From the NCBI GenBank assembly GCA_020356025.1, contig CP070630.1, positions 1,173,702 to 1,237,701 on the forward strand: a DNA stretch of 64,000 bases. The letters are read 5' to 3'. Source of the stretch: Dehalococcoidia bacterium (GTDB lineage Bacteria; Chloroflexota; Dehalococcoidia; SM23-28-2). Both the position numbers and the translations under genes were made by a program. The notes under the pieces were generated by a model, which saw only the letters and a list, made by a program, of their open reading frames with translations, was not told the DNA's origin and made no database searches. Shown in pieces: positions 3,371 through 31,924 of the stretch (its first letter is position 1; the number at the start of each line of letters is the position of its first letter).

Positions 3371-4567
3371 CTATTCCGTCTTCATGAGGCCGAGGAGAAA
3401 GGCCACCAGCACGACATCGACGCCCACCACCATGAGGCTCTGCGCCAGGGCTCCTACCTGAGCTTCCTGGGGCGGGCTGTCCAGGGCAGGGGCAACGCCG
3501 AGGAAGACATACAGGCCTATCCCCGCCAGGATCAACGCTCCCGCCGCCACCAGGAAGGCTTCCAGGCTGAAGTGCTGCCGATACAGTCTGGACAAGCGAC
3601 TCTTGCCGATGATGCCTTTGCCTGAGGCAACGAGGTGAGCAGCCAATCCCAGGAGCAGGGCGTTGATCCCTACCACCAAGAGCATCGGCCCGACAAACAC
3701 CGCAGACCAGTGGGGCCAGGCGTCGGCGTTCCCGCGCGAGACCAGTAGGGCTGACGCCATCGCGATCGCCCCCATAAGGGAAAGGATTAGGCCTGGCACG
3801 GTGAAGACGTAGGCTGGCGTGGAGAGCATCAGGAAGCGCAGGTGTCGCCAGCCGTCGCGGAAGGTGTTCAGCTTGGCCTCCCCCACCCGCGGGAAGTAGG
3901 GTATGGGGACCTCAGCGACGCGCAGCCTTCGGCGCATCGCCTTGAGGATCATCTCCGAGGCGAATTCCATGCCGGTGGAGTGGAGCCCCAGGCGCTGGTA
4001 GGCTTCTCGGGTGAAGGCGCGCAGGCCGCACTGGCTGTCGCCCAGGCGGGCTCCGGTGAACGTCCGCAGTAGAAAGGTGATGACGGGTGTGCCGATGTAG
4101 CGGTGGCTCCAGGTCATCGCCCCCGGGCGGATGCCGCCAGCATAGCGGTTTCCCACCACCAAGTCGTACCCGTCACGCAGGGGTGCGATGAGGGGCTCAA
4201 GGTTGGTGAAGTCGTACGTATCATCGCAGTCGCCCATAATGATGTACTTGCCCTGGGCTTGGGGGACCCCCGTCAGGTAAGCGCGACCGTAGCCTCGGCG
4301 CGGCTCCTCGATCACCCTGGCTCCCGCCGCGAGGGCCAGCTCGCGGGAGCGATCGGTGGAGCCGTTGTCCACCACCAGAACCTCGCCCCTGTAGCCGGAC
4401 CTCTCCAGCCAGGCCATTGCCTTCTGCACGCAGATGGCGATGGATGCCTCCTCGTTAAGACAGGGCATTACGATGGAGATATCTAGCTGGCACTCCTCAG
4501 TCCCTGTCTCATCTACTGTCGCGGTGGTTGAGCCGCTGTCGGGCAGTACGGCTACGGCTTCCCTCAT
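3371..4567 (-). CDS. Glycosyltransferase family 2 with C-terminal membrane helices (polyprenyl-phosphate glycosyltransferase-like, DPM1/GtrB/ArnC architecture)
   Basis: GT-A motifs IVMPCLNEE, VVDNGSTDRS and MGDCDDTY, followed by several hydrophobic helices. AGGAGG lies 8 nt upstream of ATG 4567. The track start at 4576 is a GTG inside that SD. The SD overlaps the flippase stop codon. Confidence 0.85.
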   Translation of the reverse strand: MREAVAVLPDSGSTTATVDETGTEECQLDISIVMPCLNEEASIAICVQKAMAWLERSGYRGEVLVVDNGSTDRSRELALAAGARVIEEPRRGYGRAYLTGVPQAQGKYIIMGDCDDTYDFTNLEPLIAPLRDGYDLVVGNRYAGGIRPGAMTWSHRYIGTPVITFLLRTFTGARLGDSQCGLRAFTREAYQRLGLHSTGMEFASEMILKAMRRRLRVAEVPIPYFPRVGEAKLNTFRDGWRHLRFLMLSTPAYVFTVPGLILSLMGAIAMASALLVSRGNADAWPHWSAVFVGPMLLVVGINALLLGLAAHLVASGKGIIGKSRLSRLYRQHFSLEAFLVAAGALILAGIGLYVFLGVAPALDSPPQEAQVGALAQSLMVVGVDVVLVAFLLGLMKTE

Positions 4568-4579
4568 ATCGGGCACCTC

Positions 4580-5839
4580 CTATTCTGGTACGGCCTCCAA
4601 GGCGGCAGTCATTCTCACCCTGATAGAGTTCCACGCTATCAGGGCCGATAGGACCGCCAGGTAGAAGGCCGCGGTTGCGCATAGGCACAAAACTACCGTT
4701 TGGATAGTGTCGTGAAAGGCTAGGAGCAGAGTCAGTTCCAGGGCAACTGTTGCCGCTGCTGAGGCTAGGGCTCCCCGGGCCATGCCGCAGGCCAACATGT
4801 AGGCGATGAGCACCCCTGCCAGCGACAGCAGGAACATGAACAGGCCCATGATCCAGAGGCTTGATGCCAGCCCCGCATAGGACGAACCGAAGACGCACTC
4901 TAGGACAGGGCCGGGGGCAGCGGCGTATAGGAGCAGAATGGGGAGGCCCACCGCTGCGGTGAGAAGGAGCGCACGCGTTAGGAGCGGCTCGCCTGCTTGC
5001 TGCTGCCAGTGGGCCTTGTTGGCGAAGGTGAACAGGGTCTCGGTGATGCCCAGGCTGGCGAAGAGGATGATCCTGCCGGCAAAGGAGAGGACGGCGTATT
5101 GACCGGCCACCTCGCCAGGGAAAAGGCGCTGGACGGCCAGCAGGTCGAGCCAGTACAACGCTGTGTGTCCGGAGTAGACTGCCATCATTATGGAGGTGTA
5201 GCCCAGGAGTCTCCTGACTGGCGACTTCTGGCCACTGCTCGCTGGCCTCCCCTCGCTGGCACCCGCTGCGCAGCGCTCGATCATCTTGGCCGAGACGACG
5301 TTGGCCAGGAGTGCGCCCAGGAGGAGCGCAGCCATGGTGCCCACCAGTCCCACGTTCAGCGCCAACGCGAGAAGGAGCAGGAAGCCGATGCGCGCTACCA
5401 TTTCCACGAGGACAGTTATAGCCACCCACGAGAATCGCAGCCCTCCCTGCAGGAACCCCCTGTCCAGGTACAAGGTGAACGTTATAATTGCGGCAAATCC
5501 CGCCAAAAGAAATGACGATAGATTGGCACCCCTTGTTACGGTAAAGAGAGGCAAAGTCACAAGGAAAAGGAGCACGGTCCCGCCCGCCAGCACGAAGGCG
5601 AGCAGGTTGCGCCGCAGAGCCGTCAGTTCAGCAGAGATCGTGTTCTCGTCTGAGCGTCCTGCATTCTCGGTGGCCAGGCGGACGATGGCCAAGCGGAGGA
5701 CGTTGGCGGGCACGGCCAGTAGGATGACTGCTCCGTACAGGATGGCGTAAGTGGCGAACTCCTCAGGCGGGAGGAGACGGGCCACCAGGACGGTGAAGCC
5801 ATAATTGCCAGCGTTCAGGAGCCCCATGGCAAACAGCAT
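4580..5839 (-). CDS. MOP/Wzx-type polysaccharide (lipid-linked oligosaccharide) flippase-like membrane protein
   Basis: 419 aa and hydrophobic throughout, with multi-helix composition. Sits in an operon with the glycosyltransferases. The assignment rests on architecture and context, not on a sharp motif. Confidence 0.65.
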   Translation of the reverse strand: MLFAMGLLNAGNYGFTVLVARLLPPEEFATYAILYGAVILLAVPANVLRLAIVRLATENAGRSDENTISAELTALRRNLLAFVLAGGTVLLFLVTLPLFTVTRGANLSSFLLAGFAAIITFTLYLDRGFLQGGLRFSWVAITVLVEMVARIGFLLLLALALNVGLVGTMAALLLGALLANVVSAKMIERCAAGASEGRPASSGQKSPVRRLLGYTSIMMAVYSGHTALYWLDLLAVQRLFPGEVAGQYAVLSFAGRIILFASLGITETLFTFANKAHWQQQAGEPLLTRALLLTAAVGLPILLLYAAAPGPVLECVFGSSYAGLASSLWIMGLFMFLLSLAGVLIAYMLACGMARGALASAAATVALELTLLLAFHDTIQTVVLCLCATAAFYLAVLSALIAWNSIRVRMTAALEAVPE

Positions 5840-26948: not shown

Positions 26949-27698
26949 GTGAAGGTGGTATTTCTGGAGGAGGTGGAGGGCTCCGGCCGCATCGGCGAGG
27001 TGAGGAACGTGGCCAACGGCTACGCTCGGAACTATCTTCTGCCGCGGAAGCTGGCCGTGCCTGCCACCGACCACAACGTTCGTATAGCTCAGGCGAGAGC
27101 CGAGGTGGAGGCCAAGCGCCAGGCGAAGCTGGACGCCGATGCCGAGGTGCTGGCGGAGAAGCTCGTTGGGCTGAGCGTCAGTATCGAGGTGAAAGTGGGT
27201 GAGCAGGGCCGGCTGTACGGCTCGGTGACCGGTCGCGACATCAGCGAGGCGCTGGAGAAGCCGCTGGGGTTTCTGCTGGAGCATCGGCAGGTGGAGCTGG
27301 AAGAGCCCATTCGTCAGGTGGGAGTGTTCGAGGTGCCGCTGAGGCTCTCGCGCAATGTGCGTCGCAGCGTGCAGGTGGCAGTGCTGGGGGAGGGGCAGAC
27401 GCTGGAGGAACTGCTGGCCGCTGTGGCTGCGGAAGAGGAGCAGCCAGAGGAAGCCGCTGAGGCAGAGGCTCCGCAGGAGGCGGAGGTGGCGGAACCAGAG
27501 GAGCAGTCAGAGGAAGTCGCCGAGGAGCCTGCTGAGGAGGCGGAGGTAGAGGAAGAGGAAAAGCCTGTCGAGGAGGCGGAGGTAGAGGAAGAGGAGAAGC
27601 CTGTCGAGGAGGCGGAGGTAGAGGAGGAAGAGAAGCCTGTCGGGGAGGCGGAGGTGGAACAGACGCAGGAAGCGGCCGAAGAGTCGTCGCAGGAATAG
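26949..27698 (+). CDS. rplI: 50S ribosomal protein L9 with about 100-aa acidic repeat C-terminal extension
   Basis: MKVVFLEEVEGSGRIGEVRNVANGYARNYLLPRKLAV... is canonical L9. After about residue 150 the sequence becomes Glu-rich with EEAEVEEEEKPV x3. Confidence 0.9.
   Translation: MKVVFLEEVEGSGRIGEVRNVANGYARNYLLPRKLAVPATDHNVRIAQARAEVEAKRQAKLDADAEVLAEKLVGLSVSIEVKVGEQGRLYGSVTGRDISEALEKPLGFLLEHRQVELEEPIRQVGVFEVPLRLSRNVRRSVQVAVLGEGQTLEELLAAVAAEEEQPEEAAEAEAPQEAEVAEPEEQSEEVAEEPAEEAEVEEEEKPVEEAEVEEEEKPVEEAEVEEEEKPVGEAEVEQTQEAAEESSQE
27534..27660 (+). repeat. In-frame 36-nt tandem repeat (3.5 copies) inside rplI
   Basis: The unit GAGGAGGCGGAGGTAGAGGAAGAGGAAAAGCCTGTC starts at 27534, 27570 and 27606, and a partial copy follows. 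Confidence 0.85.
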
Positions 27699-27920: not shown

Positions 27921-29318
27921 GTGGCGACGGTAGTAGCCGAGAGGCTTCCCCCGCACGACGTCGAGGCAGAGGAGGCGGTTATCGCCTCGCTCCTGGTGGA
28001 CGGCGAGGCCATATTCAAGGTAGCGCCGGTACTGCAACCAGCGGACTTCTTTCGGGAGAAGAACGCCTGGGCCTACGACGCCTGCCTGGCCCTCTGGGGG
28101 CGTAACGAGGCCATAAATCAGATCACCCTGGCCCACGAGCTGGCCCGGCGAGGGCGGCTGGAGGAGATGGGCGGTGTGGCCTACCTGAGCCAGCTGGTGG
28201 CGGAGTTGCCCACCCCTCTTGGCGTCGAGTACTACGCCCAGATCGTGCAGAGGGACGCCGTCTATCGCCGTCTGATCGATGCAAGCCAGAGGATACAACA
28301 GATGGCCTACCAGGGAGGTGCCGACCAGGCGGCGCTGCTGTCCCGAGCCGAGGGCCTGCTGGTGGCTGTGCGGGGGGAAAAGCTGGCCAGCGATTTCGTG
28401 CACATCAAGGAGTTGCTGGAACGCCACGTGGAGGGGCCGGGGATGGAGGAGGCGGGCGCTGTGTCCGGCGGTCACATCCGCACCGGCTTCATGGACATGG
28501 ACACGCTCCTGGGAGGACTCAAGCGGGCCGACCTGGTGATCCTGGCCGCTCGCCCGAGCCTAGGGAAGACGTCGCTGGCCCTGAACATCGCTCGCAATGC
28601 CGCTGTGGGCCAGCAGGCCACAGTGGCCGTCTTCAGCCTGGAGACGGCCGGCGAGCAGGTGGCTCAGCGGTTGCTGGCCATGGAGTCCAGCGTCGACTCC
28701 ACCCGTCTGCGCCTCGGCACCCATAACGAGGCCGAGGAGCGGCGGATCATGCAGGCTATCGGCGTGCTGGCCAACGCCAACATCTACGTGGACGACAGCG
28801 CCGTGGTGCGCGTGCCCGAGATGCGGGGCAAGGCCTGGCGTCTGTCCAGAGAGGGCCGGCTGGACCTGATAATCGTTGACTACTTGCAGCTTATGCACGG
28901 CGGGGTGCCGGCGGAGAACCGAGTGCAGGAGATCAGCTACATCTCGCGCTCACTCAAGGAGCTGGCGCGGGAGCTGAACGTGCCGGTGCTGGCTGTGTCG
29001 CAGCTATCGAGGGCGGTGGAGGCGCGGGCCACCCACATACCCATGCTGAGCGACCTGCGGGAGTCGGGGAGCATAGAGCAGGACGCCGACGTGGTGCTTT
29101 TCATCTATCGCGAGGATGCCTACGTGCGCAGGGACGAATGGGAGCGCGTGCATCCCGACCGCCCGGGGGAGAGCTACCCGCAAGGCATCGCCCAGATCAT
29201 CGTGGCGAAGCACCGCAACGGCCCCACGGGTACGCTCCATCTGCGCTTTCGGGAGAAGACGGCTCGCTTTGAAGACCTCCTCGTCCTCCCTTCAGAAGGG
29301 GAGGGCGAATGGAACTAG
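27921..29318 (+). CDS. dnaB: Replicative DNA helicase DnaB
   Basis: PPHDVEAEEAVIASLL, Walker A ARPSLGKTS, IIVDYLQLM and SQLSRAVE. Confidence 0.95.
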   Translation: MATVVAERLPPHDVEAEEAVIASLLVDGEAIFKVAPVLQPADFFREKNAWAYDACLALWGRNEAINQITLAHELARRGRLEEMGGVAYLSQLVAELPTPLGVEYYAQIVQRDAVYRRLIDASQRIQQMAYQGGADQAALLSRAEGLLVAVRGEKLASDFVHIKELLERHVEGPGMEEAGAVSGGHIRTGFMDMDTLLGGLKRADLVILAARPSLGKTSLALNIARNAAVGQQATVAVFSLETAGEQVAQRLLAMESSVDSTRLRLGTHNEAEERRIMQAIGVLANANIYVDDSAVVRVPEMRGKAWRLSREGRLDLIIVDYLQLMHGGVPAENRVQEISYISRSLKELARELNVPVLAVSQLSRAVEARATHIPMLSDLRESGSIEQDADVVLFIYREDAYVRRDEWERVHPDRPGESYPQGIAQIIVAKHRNGPTGTLHLRFREKTARFEDLLVLPSEGEGEWN

Positions 29319-30040
29319 AGAAGAGTCGGTTCGAGGGCTTTCCTGCCGGGGCGTTGGCGACCACCATCCCGAACCTTTTTTTCACTGCTGTGTTGCCCCG
29401 CATCAGCGACCCGGCGGAGCTGGTGGTCAGCCTTTACTGCTTCTTTGCCCACGGCCGCAAGAAGGGGCAGCCCCGCTTTCTGACCTACGCTGAGCTGAGC
29501 GCGGATCGCGTACTGGCTGCCGCGCTCGATCCACTGGGGGAGGGCGCCCTGCGACGGGGCGTCGACGCGGCGGTGGAGCGGGGAACGCTTCTGCGGCTGG
29601 ACGTGGAGCCTGAGCCTGTGGCAGGCGGGCACGAGGGGCAGACGCAAGAGCTGTACTTCCTCAACACGGCGGCCGGCCGGCGGCAGGTGACGGCGATCGA
29701 GGCTGGCGAGCAAAGGTTGGGGCGGCTCCTGCCTTCGCCGACTGAGCCGCCTGAACTCAAGCCCAACATCTTCGACCTTTACGAACAACACATCGGCCCC
29801 CTGACGCCGATGGTCGCCGAGGAACTGAAGGACGCTGAGGGGCAGTATCCTGCCGACTGGTTTGAGCCGGCCTTTCGGATAGCGGTGGAACAAAACAAGC
29901 GTAGCTGGAGCTACATCGCTGCGATTCTCAGGCGATGGGAGACAGAGGGTCCGGACTATGAGAAGGCTGGACGAGATTCTGAAGGGCCTGGGCGCAAACG
30001 CTCCCTCTCAGGGCGATACCGACATCTCGTCCGTCACTGA
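29309..30040 (+). CDS. DnaD-domain (DnaB_2-type) replication initiation / helicase-loading accessory protein
   Basis: The C-terminal part NIFDLYEQHIGPLTPMVAEELKDAEGQYPADWFEPAFRIAVEQNKRSWSYIAAILRRWETEG matches the DnaD C-terminal domain pattern. The start overlaps the dnaB stop. Confidence 0.7.
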   Translation: MELEKSRFEGFPAGALATTIPNLFFTAVLPRISDPAELVVSLYCFFAHGRKKGQPRFLTYAELSADRVLAAALDPLGEGALRRGVDAAVERGTLLRLDVEPEPVAGGHEGQTQELYFLNTAAGRRQVTAIEAGEQRLGRLLPSPTEPPELKPNIFDLYEQHIGPLTPMVAEELKDAEGQYPADWFEPAFRIAVEQNKRSWSYIAAILRRWETEGPDYEKAGRDSEGPGRKRSLSGRYRHLVRH

Positions 30041-31379
30041 GGCCGCTGAGCGGGTCGAGGAGGGCGTTTGCCCGCTGTGCCGGGGGGCGGGCTTCGTGCG
30101 CAAGGATGTCCCGCTCGACGATACCGACTTCGGTCGGGCCTTCCCCTGCCGGTGCGTGCTGGAGGAGAAGGAAGAGGAGCGGCTGGCGCGCCTGCAGCGC
30201 TACAGCAACCTGGGGCCTCTGGTTCGCCTGACCTTCGCCAACCTGATGAGCCGCGGCCGCAGCACCGATCCCGGCAACCAAGAGAGGTTCGCGCGAGCGG
30301 TGGCGGCGGCCCAGCAGTTCGCCGAGGAGCCGAGCGGCTGGCTGGTGCTCGGCGGGCCCAGCGGCTGCGGGAAGACGCATCTGGCGGCGGCGATCGGCAA
30401 CGCCTCCATCGAGCAGGGGCGGCCGGCCTTCTTTGTGGTGGTGCCCGACCTGCTGGATCATCTTCGGGCTGCCTACAAGCCGGGCAGCGAGGTCTCGTAC
30501 GATGAACTGTTCGAGCAGGTGCGCAACGCTCCGCTGGTGATCCTTGACGACCTGGGGGGTCACAGCGCTACTGCCTGGGCGCAGGAGAAGCTCTTCCAGC
30601 TACTGAACCATCGCTACAACCACCGGCTTCCGACCGTCTTCACGACCGGTGTTCCCCTGGAGGAGATGGACGAGCGGCTGCGCACGCGCCTGAGCGATGC
30701 GAGTCTGGCGCAGGTGTTCGTGCTGGAAGATGGGCTGGGTGGAGGGACGGCTGCCTTCGGTGGGCTGGCGCTGCCGGTCATCCGCGAGATGACGTTCGAG
30801 AGCTTCTATCTGGGAGGCATCGGTATCAGCTCGGAGGCTAGTCAGAGCCTGCGTAATGCTTTCCGGGCGGCTAAGAACTACGCGGAGAGCCCTGAAGGAT
30901 GGCTTGTGCTGCTGGGGCGAACCGGTTGTGGCAAGACCCACCTGGCAGCGGCGATCGGCCACCATCTGGAGAGCAAGGGCATAACAGTGGAGTTCTGCGT
31001 GGTGCCCGACCTGCTGGAGCTGCTGCGCTCGTCCTTTCGGGAGGAGGCAGCAGGCGGTCAGTTCGACCAGATCTTCGAGGCGGCGCGCACGACTCCCTGC
31101 CTGATCCTTGACGACCTGGGGGTGCACAGCGCTACTCCGTGGGCTCAAGAGAAGCTGTTCCAGATCCTCAACTATCGCTACAATGCCAAACTGCCGACCG
31201 TCATCACGGTGGGTTGCGCCCTGGACGACCTGCCCGATTCCTGGGTCTCGCGCATGTATGACACCAAGGTGAGCATGATCTTCGAGATAGAGGCGCCGGA
31301 CTATCGGGGGCGGCCCAGGAAGCAGGCTCCGCCGCCTCAGCCGGCACGGCGGGGAGGGCGCAAGCGGGCCGCTCGCTGA
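29958..31379 (+). CDS. DnaC/DnaI-type helicase loader with two tandem AAA+ modules and an N-terminal Cys4 motif
   Basis: Module 1 is GGPSGCGKTHLAAAIGN...VVPDLLDHLR...LVILDDLGGHSATAWAQEKLFQLLNHRYNHRLPTVFTT. Module 2 is LGRTGCGKTHLAAAIGH...VVPDLLELLR...LILDDLGVHSATPWAQEKLFQILNYRYNAKLPTVITV. N-terminal CPLCRG...FPCRC. There is an 83-nt overlap with the upstream gene. Confidence 0.8.
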   Translation: MRRLDEILKGLGANAPSQGDTDISSVTEAAERVEEGVCPLCRGAGFVRKDVPLDDTDFGRAFPCRCVLEEKEEERLARLQRYSNLGPLVRLTFANLMSRGRSTDPGNQERFARAVAAAQQFAEEPSGWLVLGGPSGCGKTHLAAAIGNASIEQGRPAFFVVVPDLLDHLRAAYKPGSEVSYDELFEQVRNAPLVILDDLGGHSATAWAQEKLFQLLNHRYNHRLPTVFTTGVPLEEMDERLRTRLSDASLAQVFVLEDGLGGGTAAFGGLALPVIREMTFESFYLGGIGISSEASQSLRNAFRAAKNYAESPEGWLVLLGRTGCGKTHLAAAIGHHLESKGITVEFCVVPDLLELLRSSFREEAAGGQFDQIFEAARTTPCLILDDLGVHSATPWAQEKLFQILNYRYNAKLPTVITVGCALDDLPDSWVSRMYDTKVSMIFEIEAPDYRGRPRKQAPPPQPARRGGRKRAAR

Positions 31380-31924
31380 GAACGGCGGCGGGTGTCGCGG
31401 CGGGCGCGCAGCCAGTCGCGCAGGGCCGAGTGGGTGGTTGGGAAGGAGAGGTCGTCCCAGGGGATGTCGTCCGGGGCAAACCAGCGGGCCTCGAGCGCCT
31501 CGTGCCCGGCCTTCGCGCGACCCGTCGGGCGCTGGCCCTGGAAGACCACAGTGAGGATCCCCGGGCTCTCGGGGGCTGGCCGCGAGTAGACGCCCACCAG
31601 CGGTCCTGCCTTCACCTTCAGGCCGACCTCCTCCTCTGTCTCCCGTACGGCTGCCTCCTCGGCTGTCTCGTCGATCTCCATGTAGCCGGCGGGGAAGGTC
31701 CAGGTGCCGCGACGGGGCTCGATGGCGCGGCGCAGAAGAAGCAGGCGGCCGCCGCGCTCGATGATGACGCCGGCCACGACTCTAGGGTTGAGGTAGAGGA
31801 TGCGGTCGCACTGGTCGCAGACCAGGCGGGGGCGGTCTTCCGTCTCTAGGAGGCGTTCGCTGAGATGACCGCCGCAGTTGGGGCAGAAGCGGGGCGGGCT
31901 GAGGCTGAAATGAGCGCTGGTCAT
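31337..31924 (-). CDS. NUDIX hydrolase with N-terminal zinc ribbon (NudC-like architecture)
   Basis: FCPNCGG...CDQCDRILYLNPR, then the Nudix box GTWTFPAGYMEIDETAEEAAVRETEEEVGL. ATGA overlap with moaE. Confidence 0.85.
   Translation of the reverse strand: MTSAHFSLSPPRFCPNCGGHLSERLLETEDRPRLVCDQCDRILYLNPRVVAGVIIERGGRLLLLRRAIEPRRGTWTFPAGYMEIDETAEEAAVRETEEEVGLKVKAGPLVGVYSRPAPESPGILTVVFQGQRPTGRAKAGHEALEARWFAPDDIPWDDLSFPTTHSALRDWLRARRDTRRRSQRAARLRPPRRAG

Follow-up and report, generated by a model that had tools for sequence, protein, structure and literature searches.

Two AAA+ modules in one polypeptide: a putative DnaB helicase loader of Dehalococcoidia and other Chloroflexota

How is a replicative helicase loaded when the gene in the loader's place encodes two ATPase modules in a single chain? 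This question is raised by a 64,000-nucleotide (nt) stretch of contig CP070630.1 from a Dehalococcoidia bacterium (assembly GCA_020356025.1, positions 1,173,702 to 1,237,701 of the forward strand), hereafter the window, in which a gene for a protein of 473 amino acids (aa) stands close behind dnaB. A preliminary description of this DNA, made from the letters alone, had called the protein a helicase loader of the DnaC/DnaI type with two AAA+ modules and had noted that the known loaders of this type have one; the latter agrees with the published account of one helicase-binding domain plus one AAA+ fold (PMC8213410). We find that the two-module protein is real and widespread and that its two modules have lost different catalytic elements. 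We consider it probable that the protein forms an alternating spiral on DnaB, likely with three polypeptides per hexamer, each contributing one complete and one stripped ATP site.

The loader consists of an N-terminal helix and a four-Cys zinc module, two complete AAA+ modules in tandem and a basic, predicted disordered tail, all within one uninterrupted open reading frame (ORF). Each module owns an N-linker motif (TFxxF/L), a P-loop, a Walker B motif, a predicted tetrad for binding single-stranded DNA (ssDNA) and an Arg-finger. The parts are as follows, with model confidence given as the predicted local distance difference test (pLDDT).

29958 to 31379, plus strand: putative two-module helicase-loader gene, 473 aa and stop, from the ORF, Pfam and NCBIfam matches, self-alignment and homologues
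29958 to 29993, plus strand: conserved N-terminal helix MRRLDEILKGLG, residues 1-12; M-x-x-L-[DE]-E-I-L-K is kept to about 50 % overall identity
30069 to 30155, plus strand: four-Cys zinc module CPLCRGAGF...PCRC, residues 38-66, one per polypeptide, from Cys conservation
30210 to 30731, plus strand: AAA+ module 1, residues 85-258 (Walker A 30354-30377, Walker B 30534-30551, coupler/finger 30675-30689)
30732 to 30764, plus strand: Gly-rich inter-module linker GLGGGTAAFGG, residues 259-269, variable in the family (pLDDT <50 at residues 260-264)
30765 to 31313, plus strand: AAA+ module 2, residues 270-452 (Walker A 30915-30938, Walker B 31098-31115, finger 31239-31253, sensor II 31299-31307)
31314 to 31376, plus strand: basic Pro/Arg-rich C-terminal tail PRKQAPPPQPARRGGRKRAAR, residues 453-473, Arg-rich in the family (pLDDT <50)

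The internal repeat is evident when the two halves are compared. In BLASTP, residues 1-259 and 260-473 align over 173 residues with 2 gaps, at 45 % identity and 64 % positives (E = 3e-51). The match lies well outside what chance would produce and is longer than the estimate of about 150 residues in the preliminary description. The motifs named for both modules are all present where they had been placed, namely Walker A as GPSGCGKT (133-140) and GRTGCGKT (320-327), Walker B as LVILDD (193-198) and CLILDD (381-386), VVPDLL and the AWAQEKLFQ.LN.RYN..LPTV block in each module, together with the N-terminal CPLC...CRC. Pfam models IstB_IS21 (PF01695, E 3e-37) and Bac_DnaA (PF00308) and many generic AAA models each match two stretches of the loader, and NCBIfam PRK08116 reaches 218.9 bits (cut-off 189) as a score summed over two stretches.

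The N-terminal module has four cysteines, C38, C41, C64 and C66, all unchanged across 59 aligned relatives, which suggests zinc binding. C38/C41 occur in 96/101 relatives, that is in every one reaching that position, the other 5 being N-terminally shorter. Two short beta strands are predicted in this module and a helix, at low pLDDT, at residues 4-12. The comparison with the zinc motif of DnaI made in the preliminary description holds for the analogous position and fails for the sequence, as a profile of the N-terminal region matched neither DnaI nor DnaC among all PDB sequences, and no DnaI_N match was obtained in Pfam at E up to 1. We therefore rejected a DnaI-like zinc domain; the module has just a non-significant likeness to the CxxCxGxG motif of DnaJ.

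A search of 5.8 billion proteins with the window loader returned proteins of 377-506 aa as its best 120 matches, all 120 with two Walker A motifs, and those that carry a taxonomic name belong to Dehalococcoidia or Chloroflexota. Two further searches, seeded with Dehalococcoidaceae and Anaerolineaceae orthologues, gave two modules by module count in 120/120 (Dehalococcoidales search) and 119/120 proteins (Anaerolineae search). Both of these additional searches gave only proteins derived from metagenome-assembled genomes (MAGs) and no two-module loader of a cultured isolate. Scanning one genome per GTDB species yielded at least 591 confirmed stretches, of which the best 80 provided the details: all 80 span both modules in one ORF, and almost all are from Dehalococcoidia, Dehalococcoidales, Anaerolineae, 'Chloroflexia' and Ardenticatenales MAGs. 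By module count per ORF the fetched loci comprise 80 two-module, 2 one-module and 1 four-module loaders. Among 1.84 billion cluster representatives scanned exhaustively with HMMER, 679 proteins reached E <1e-30, and the best 150 of these include 101 two-module proteins, 46 one-module proteins (some of them fragments), one with three modules and one with four. In Dehalococcoidia and Anaerolineae two modules are the usual state. In other lineages the same operon slot is taken by one-module loaders (278-281 aa; loci L082 and L083, Dehalococcoidia/Chloroflexota MAGs) or by the four-module loader (827 aa; locus L081, on two contigs), which has a single zinc module.

A function in loading DnaB is strongly suggested by homology together with the context of the gene, in which two neighbours matter most.

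27921 to 29318, plus strand: dnaB, replicative DNA helicase, 465 aa (TIGR00665, 481 bits, cut-off 385; Pfam DnaB and DnaB_C)
29309 to 30040, plus strand: DnaD-domain protein gene, 243 aa (PF07261 DnaB_2, E 9e-10, residues 155-214; TIGR01446 DnaD_dom)

In the window rplI, dnaB, the DnaD-domain gene and the loader gene follow one another on the same strand, the latter two directly 3' of dnaB, whose product is presumably the loader's client. A DnaD-domain homologue lies directly 5' of the loader in 78/80 GTDB loci, and dnaB precedes the DnaD-domain gene in related loci wherever the contig extends that far. The loader is thus associated with the DnaB helicase gene through a same-strand array of dnaB, DnaD-domain gene and loader in about 80 species.

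The next question is whether both modules could act as ATPases. In AAA+ assemblies the Arg-finger, and in DnaC also the Arg-coupler, acts in trans on the ATP site of the neighbour, while sensor II acts in cis. The relevant residues of E. coli DnaC are K112 (Walker A), E170 (Walker B), N203 (sensor I), R216 (Arg-coupler), R220 (Arg-finger), R237 (sensor II) and K143/F146/S177/Y179 (ssDNA tetrad) (Puri et al. 2021, PMC8213410). These were mapped onto the loader via a HMMER alignment, with the DnaC sequence checked against the printed alignment, and residues were counted in 323 two-module proteins and 27 full-length single-module relatives.

Walker A Lys: module 1 K139 (T140), kept in 323/323; module 2 K326 (T327), kept in 322/323; single-module relatives 27/27
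Walker B: module 1 D197/D198; module 2 D385/D386
Sensor-I position: module 1 G231; module 2 G419
Arg-coupler: module 1 R240, Arg in 303/323; module 2 S428 (lost), Arg in 107/323 (33 %); single-module relatives 26/27
Arg-finger: module 1 R244, Arg in 315/323; module 2 R432, Arg in 316/323; single-module relatives 27/27
Sensor II: module 1 none, Gly-rich linker instead, Arg in 42/323; module 2 R450 (D448-Y449-R450), Arg in 273/323 (85 %); single-module relatives 25/27
ssDNA tetrad equivalents: module 1 R170/Y173/T205/W207; module 2 R357/F360/T393/W395

Walker A and B residues (K139/T140, D197/D198, K326/T327 and D385/D386) are 94-100 % conserved, and the tetrad, for which DNA binding is predicted by alignment, conforms to R/[YF]/[TS]/W in about 99 % of cases in either module. 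Among the 118 proteins most like the window loader, sensor II of module 1 is kept in 0/118 (0/120 in Dehalococcoidales proteins) and the coupler Arg of module 2 in 22/118. The finger of module 2 is kept in 117/118 of this set and in 120/120 of the Dehalococcoidales proteins, and in both sets the Walker A Lys of module 1 is invariant and its Walker B nearly so. The preliminary description had left it to be seen whether finger and sensor residues are intact in both modules: the fingers are, sensor II has been lost in module 1, and the sensor-I Asn is absent from both. It had also raised the prospect that one module is degenerate at its catalytic positions, and neither is at Walker A, Walker B or the Arg-finger. 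The divergence of the two ATP sites that it thought possible has taken place, module 1 being without sensor II and module 2 mostly without the Arg-coupler. Across these alignments, the modules of the window lineage have decayed in a complementary manner, module 1 losing an element that acts in cis and module 2 one that acts in trans.

The residue at the sensor-I position (Asn in DnaC, N203) varies in either module and also among single-module relatives. Because the Asn is unconserved in all three classes, its absence is a trait of the clade and no effect of the duplication. An invariant Thr two residues before this position (T229, T417) might substitute for it. We also considered that one module is a pseudo-ATPase, since a first regular expression flagged about 20 representatives; most of these keep GK[TS] and just lack the upstream Gly, and the idea was dropped. 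In the window loader both P-loops are canonical.

These features suggest how the protein could work. The zinc module would dock on DnaB, and the AAA+ modules would form a head-to-tail spiral behind the helicase that binds ATP and ssDNA in the fashion of DnaC and DnaI. Because both Arg-fingers and both P-loops are near-invariant, modules 1 and 2 should alternate in a continuous spiral, and this alternation would stand whichever of the two interfaces is intramolecular. Six modules would be supplied by three polypeptides per DnaB hexamer, which can reasonably be inferred as the stoichiometry, and would bring three zinc (helicase-binding) modules to each hexamer. The ATP site of module 2 would receive the finger and the coupler of module 1 and use its own sensor II, making it a full DnaC-like catalytic site gated by ssDNA. 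In E. coli DnaC the substitution R237D abolishes ATPase activity and keeps loading, and R216A uncouples ATPase activity from ssDNA (PMC8213410). Given these effects, the site of module 1, which is without sensor II and would be offered a finger without a coupler, plausibly binds ATP and hydrolyses it slowly or ungated.

Lineages differ in how the pair is equipped. Module 1 of the sampled Anaerolineae carries the full canonical set, with the sensor-I Asn (118/119 proteins), the R-x3-R pair and sensor II. The finger position of module 2 is occupied by Leu in 88/119 of these proteins (PRLKSL[IL]LD; proteins P0424-P0543, also locus L068 at 4304-5716). An error of alignment register was dismissed as the cause, as direct inspection shows that the loss is real in most of them. 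The composite site made of the module 1 P-loop and the trans residues of module 2 is therefore weakened here as well, through another residue, which is independent support for one good site per pair. As a common thread, one fully equipped site per pair is retained, and which site it is varies by lineage. It is possible, and we put it forward only tentatively, that Chloroflexota as a phylum load DnaB with covalent AAA+ chains, three two-module polypeptides per hexamer (four-module chains in some lineages), with only three helicase-binding modules and with every second ATP site fully functional.

Several points weigh against the alternating spiral. The predicted template modelling score of the loader model is 0.48, which gives low confidence in how the modules are oriented towards each other. 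No homology between the zinc module and the helicase-binding domain of DnaI could be detected, and the role of this module in binding DnaB is presumed from its position. The sensor-I Asn, which is essential for ATPase activity and loading in E. coli DnaC (PMC8213410), is Gly in both modules, and ATPase competence is for this reason only assumed from the other motifs. The loader also falls below the NCBIfam equivalog cut-offs for DnaC (PRK07952, 104.7 vs 357) and DnaI (PRK08939, 129.4 vs 228). The loss of the module 2 finger in Anaerolineae could mean that the chain closes on itself as a pseudo-dimer and polymerises no further. Finally, a divergent two-module subclade (P0153, P0160, P0173, P0174, P0187, P0203, P0211, P0215 and P0261) shows the opposite polarity of decay: its module 1 is complete with sensor II, and its module 2 is without the upstream P-loop glycines and sensor II and has an altered Walker B context (DDFS, DDFD). 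A catalytic site in module 2 is therefore specific to some lineages and no rule.

One explanation for a second module that would leave the known stoichiometry in place is that six polypeptides bind each hexamer, with one zinc module for every DnaB subunit as in DnaB6-DnaC6. The canonical spiral would then be built from a single module type, and the other type would be a second tier or a regulator, for example an intramolecular cap that keeps the protein from assembling too early, or a docking site for DnaA or the DnaD-domain protein. This would fit the 6:6 ratio given for characterised DnaC and DnaI complexes (PMC11087952 and PMC3791466), the presence of one zinc module per polypeptide, and the fact that the modules differ in motif complement with module 2 evolving faster. 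We nevertheless regard it as unlikely: P-loop, Walker B, Arg-finger and the four tetrad positions stand at 97-100 % in both modules, which one would not expect of a cap or adaptor; what one module has lost the other tends to keep, so that losses are not piled up in either; and six copies of the existing four-module, single-zinc form would make 24 modules. The pseudo-dimer just mentioned would be closed around a single composite ATP site, with no continuous spiral and with pairs acting independently on DnaB. An orphan outer face would account for the Anaerolineae Leu and an orphan ATP site for the module 1 without sensor II in the window lineage. Such a face and site should not, however, go with a module 2 finger and a module 1 Walker A Lys as strictly kept as those counted above, and the conserved R432 argues against a closed pair in the window lineage in particular, so that this explanation appears quite improbable to us.

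Two further explanations would deny the premise. The gene could belong to a prophage or mobile element, as an IstB-type helper of IS21 or a phage replication protein, and not be a chromosomal loader; its best Pfam match is indeed IstB_IS21, dna[CI] genes are thought to be phage-derived (PMC5109545), and viral contigs often carry single-module relatives, with 24-46 % identity. There is very little chance of this, since the loader scores 150.1 bits against a cut-off of 200 with the NCBIfam model of the IS21 helper (IS21_help_AAA), no transposase is adjacent, rplI, dnaB and the DnaD-domain gene neighbour it in the same order in about 80 species, the closest 80 relatives from viral contigs are all single-module, and the base composition of the window is uniform. 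The fusion could also be an artefact, two adjacent loader genes having been joined by a frameshift or an assembly error. Nothing specific speaks for this; odd entries do exist, such as a 792-aa protein from a single small contig whose first two modules are 84 % identical, or a 671-aa fusion of DnaD-domain protein and loader. The same continuous ORF occurs at 46-95 % identity in hundreds of independent assemblies from varied sources and lineages, and the linker and the N-linker motif of module 2 are conserved in frame. The chance of an artefact is accordingly negligible, and the covalent tandem duplication of a DnaC/DnaI-clade ATPase announced in the preliminary description stands on conservation throughout the phylum.

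Where does a loader that probably forms an alternating spiral belong among known ATPases? The AlphaFold model has a mean pLDDT of 79.7, with residues 1-35, 260-264 and 453-473 predicted disordered. Foldseek matches the model, module by module, to DnaC (3EC2, target template modelling (TM) score 0.81; 6QEM_G, root-mean-square deviation (rmsd) 2.4 A), DnaI, IstB and DnaA, and each module alone matches the PDB sequences of DnaC, DnaI and IstB at E 1e-13 to 1e-14. DnaA models give 96-101 bits (cut-offs 344-410) and Hda 76.6 (cut-off 194.8). A stacked double ring as in type II AAA+ proteins (p97, NSF, ClpB-like) was rejected, as whole-chain Foldseek matches to p97, NSF and ATAD2 have an rmsd of 14-23 A and TM scores of 0.17-0.29; they reflect only the presence of two P-loop modules. 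Among the NCBIfam models the loader passes the generic PRK08116 and stays below the equivalog cut-offs for DnaC, DnaI, IstB, DnaA and Hda. We therefore assign it to a separate subfamily within the DnaC/DnaI/IstB clade, one that would work in the manner of a DnaC/DnaI loader while departing from the single-module build that defines such loaders.

Per module the fold is that of the AAA+ initiator clade, as in DnaC of E. coli (6QEL/6QEM) and Aquifex aeolicus (3EC2/3ECC), with target TM scores of 0.60-0.81 and an rmsd of 2.4-3.3 A. Walker A and B, the R-x3-R pair of coupler and finger (module 1), the sensor-II Arg (module 2), the tetrad (both modules) and an N-linker motif of the sFxNF type are shared with DnaC. 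Unlike DnaC, the loader has two AAA+ modules per chain, a four-Cys zinc N-terminus in place of the helical helicase-binding domain, no sensor-I Asn, and a gene linked to dnaB and a DnaD-domain gene. With DnaI (Bacillus, Geobacillus and Staphylococcus; 4M4W, 2W58, 5HE8 and 2QGZ) it shares the layout of a zinc-binding N-terminal region plus a DnaC-like AAA+ fold and the co-occurrence with a DnaD-family protein, and 2QGZ is the best PDB sequence match of module 2 (E 1.3e-14). It differs from DnaI in having two AAA+ modules and a zinc module without sequence similarity to the DnaI N-domain. The dnaB(co-loader)-dnaI arrangement of Bacillus also differs from the array of rplI, dnaB, DnaD-domain gene and loader. 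IstB, the IS21 helper (5BQ5, 8Q3W and 8Q4D), is of the same AAA+ clade, provides the best Pfam match and, like module 2, has no Arg-coupler, but the loader has no IstA partner and sits among chromosomal replication genes. The single-module Chloroflexota loaders (278-281 aa; for example P0289 and P0276) begin with the same helix and zinc module, followed by an AAA+ module and a basic tail, and their genes take the same place in the operon and likewise overlap the DnaD-domain gene; they hold coupler, finger and sensor II together in one module, whereas the window loader spreads them over two.

Non-equivalent ATP sites, some catalytic and some structural, are established for clamp loaders and ORC/Cdc6. 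There the asymmetry is distributed across separate paralogous subunits, and here it would lie within one polypeptide of the DnaC/DnaI clade. A tandem loader domain is likewise found in the 'DciA dyad', a duplication reported in 11 actinobacterial proteins (bioRxiv 10.1101/2022.01.24.477630), but DciA is unrelated in fold. Cultured Chloroflexi have one domesticated dna[CI] gene and no dciA (Brezellec et al. 2016), a record that fits the view of this gene as the resident loader; the main text and supplement of that study are silent on dna[CI] architecture. Full-text literature searches yielded no account of a DnaC/DnaI loader with two modules, and the architecture is apparently not yet described in the searchable literature.

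How many subunits, helicase contacts and working ATP sites a loader must have to open a DnaB ring and put it in place is still debated on the basis of mutants of homo-oligomeric DnaC and DnaI, in which all sites are identical and cannot be altered singly. With two modules in fixed order the register of the sites is fixed, and 'odd' and 'even' positions of the spiral become separately mutable. The pattern of conservation reveals which elements have been allowed to decay, namely sensor II in one module and coupler or finger in the other, and loaders with one, two and four modules in one operon slot offer a ready-made series on stoichiometry. If our interpretation is true, this would be a natural and repeatedly evolved case of a bacterial DnaC/DnaI-type loader spiral that gets by with half of its ATP sites and half of its contacts to the helicase, and a single-chain counterpart of the division into catalytic and structural sites in clamp loaders and ORC/Cdc6. 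The finding refines the picture of a single dna[CI] acquisition reported for Chloroflexi and gives annotation pipelines a reason to drop the labels 'ATP-binding protein' or 'DnaA' for two-module loaders. At present P0420 and P0472 are labelled 'Chromosomal replication initiator protein DnaA' in the source databases, and most others 'ATP-binding protein' or 'DnaC'.

The relationships among modules bear on when the duplication occurred. The nearest relative of a module 1 is another module 1 in 181/203 cases and that of a module 2 another module 2 in 161/203. Identity is 52 % between modules 1 and 45 % between modules 2, and module 2 evolves faster. Between two sampled Dehalococcoidia groups, modules 1 have an identity of 0.60 to each other, compared with 0.43-0.51 between module 1 and module 2. 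These values support an old duplication in Dehalococcoidia that predates the split of the two groups and that Anaerolineae may or may not share. Single-module forms are closest to module 2 of Dehalococcoidales (0.61) and may be secondary losses. The basic tail, described at first as distinctive of module 2, is present as stated and is no product of the duplication, for single-module relatives end in a similar one. The tail and the DYR segment would then be the C-terminus of the ancestral single-module form, and module 1 appears to have lost both, with a Gly-rich linker instead. In the four-module loader, modules 1-3 carry a sensor-II-type motif (PDYR or PNFR). Their mutual identity of 53-65 % points to a multiplication of its own, more recent than the duplication above. 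At that locus (L081, 3433-8484) the loader follows a DnaB that bears an intein (PF14890).

Some single-module proteins (P0229, P0230, P0239, P0240, P0258, P0264, P0268 and P0270) have an insert of 150-300 aa between the N-terminal helix (MERMGDILAK) and the zinc module; the insert of P0258, the sole protein of these to be tested, has no Pfam match. Met278 (30789-30791), at the start of the N-linker motif MTF of module 2, is kept in 99/101 close relatives; its equivalent in module 1 is mostly Leu, and Anaerolineae are without Met at the module 2 position. Internal initiation at Met278, yielding a free module 2, has been considered as a candidate idea only.

The loader gene begins inside the DnaD-domain gene, and the 83-nt overlap and shared operon with dnaB given in the preliminary description are exact.

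29958 to 30040, plus strand: dual-coding overlap of 83 nt between the 3' end of the DnaD-domain gene and the 5' end of the loader gene, the loader in the +1 frame
29944 to 29949, plus strand: AGAGGG, Shine-Dalgarno-like with putative function, 8 nt 5' of the loader ATG and inside the DnaD-domain gene, from sequence reading

The overlap measures 80-95 nt in 66/68 loci in which both genes could be placed, with a mode of 83 nt (30 loci) and a constant frame offset, the loader always being in +1. Conservation is seen at the protein level in both frames. The DnaD-domain protein ends in SGRYRHLVRH in the window and in KGKYGH[LM]V[KR]R-like sequences in relatives, whose loaders start with ME.[IL]G[ED]ILK or MRRLDEILK, and the conserved peptide of each frame lies opposite a variable stretch of the other. 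The conserved N-terminal helix motif indicates that the ATG at 29958 is the true start. A downstream start, which would abolish the overlap, was ruled out, as the helix, the C-terminal motif of the DnaD-domain protein and the overlap length are all conserved. Coupled bacterial genes usually overlap by 1-4 nt, and the overlap here is much longer. It probably couples the translation of the DnaD-domain protein and the loader, and this phylum-wide dual-coding overlap of 80-95 nt is hereby brought to notice. In the window, dnaB also overlaps the DnaD-domain gene by 10 nt (29309-29318), so that the three successive ORFs from dnaB to the loader are linked in a chain by their overlaps. Two proteins, P0394 (671 aa) and P0309 (638 aa), are apparent fusions of DnaD-domain protein and loader. 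Since the junctions fall at or near the beginning of the overlap and the contigs measure just about 2 kb, these are probably indel errors, a frameshift product being the alternative.

On the other side, the 3' end of a convergent Nudix-like ORF (31337 to 31924, minus strand) overlaps the last 43 nt of the loader gene (31337-31379, tail and stop). The C-terminus of its product is also Arg-rich, and one of the two Arg-rich tails may be a by-product of the other.

The conserved array opens upstream of dnaB with the gene for ribosomal protein L9.

26949 to 27698, plus strand: rplI (ribosomal protein L9), 249 aa, from ORF and translation; first gene of the conserved array

An L9 homologue lies 5' of dnaB in most related GTDB loci, and Pfam Ribosomal_L9_N/C match the orthologous rplI genes of L082 and L083. 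The window L9 has 249 aa compared with the usual length of about 148, and ends in a strongly acidic C-terminal extension of about 100 aa (approximately 27390-27698) with three EEAEVEEEEKPV repeats. In most related loci the alignment of the L9 homologues is confined to residues 1-145, and the acidic tail thus looks lineage-specific.

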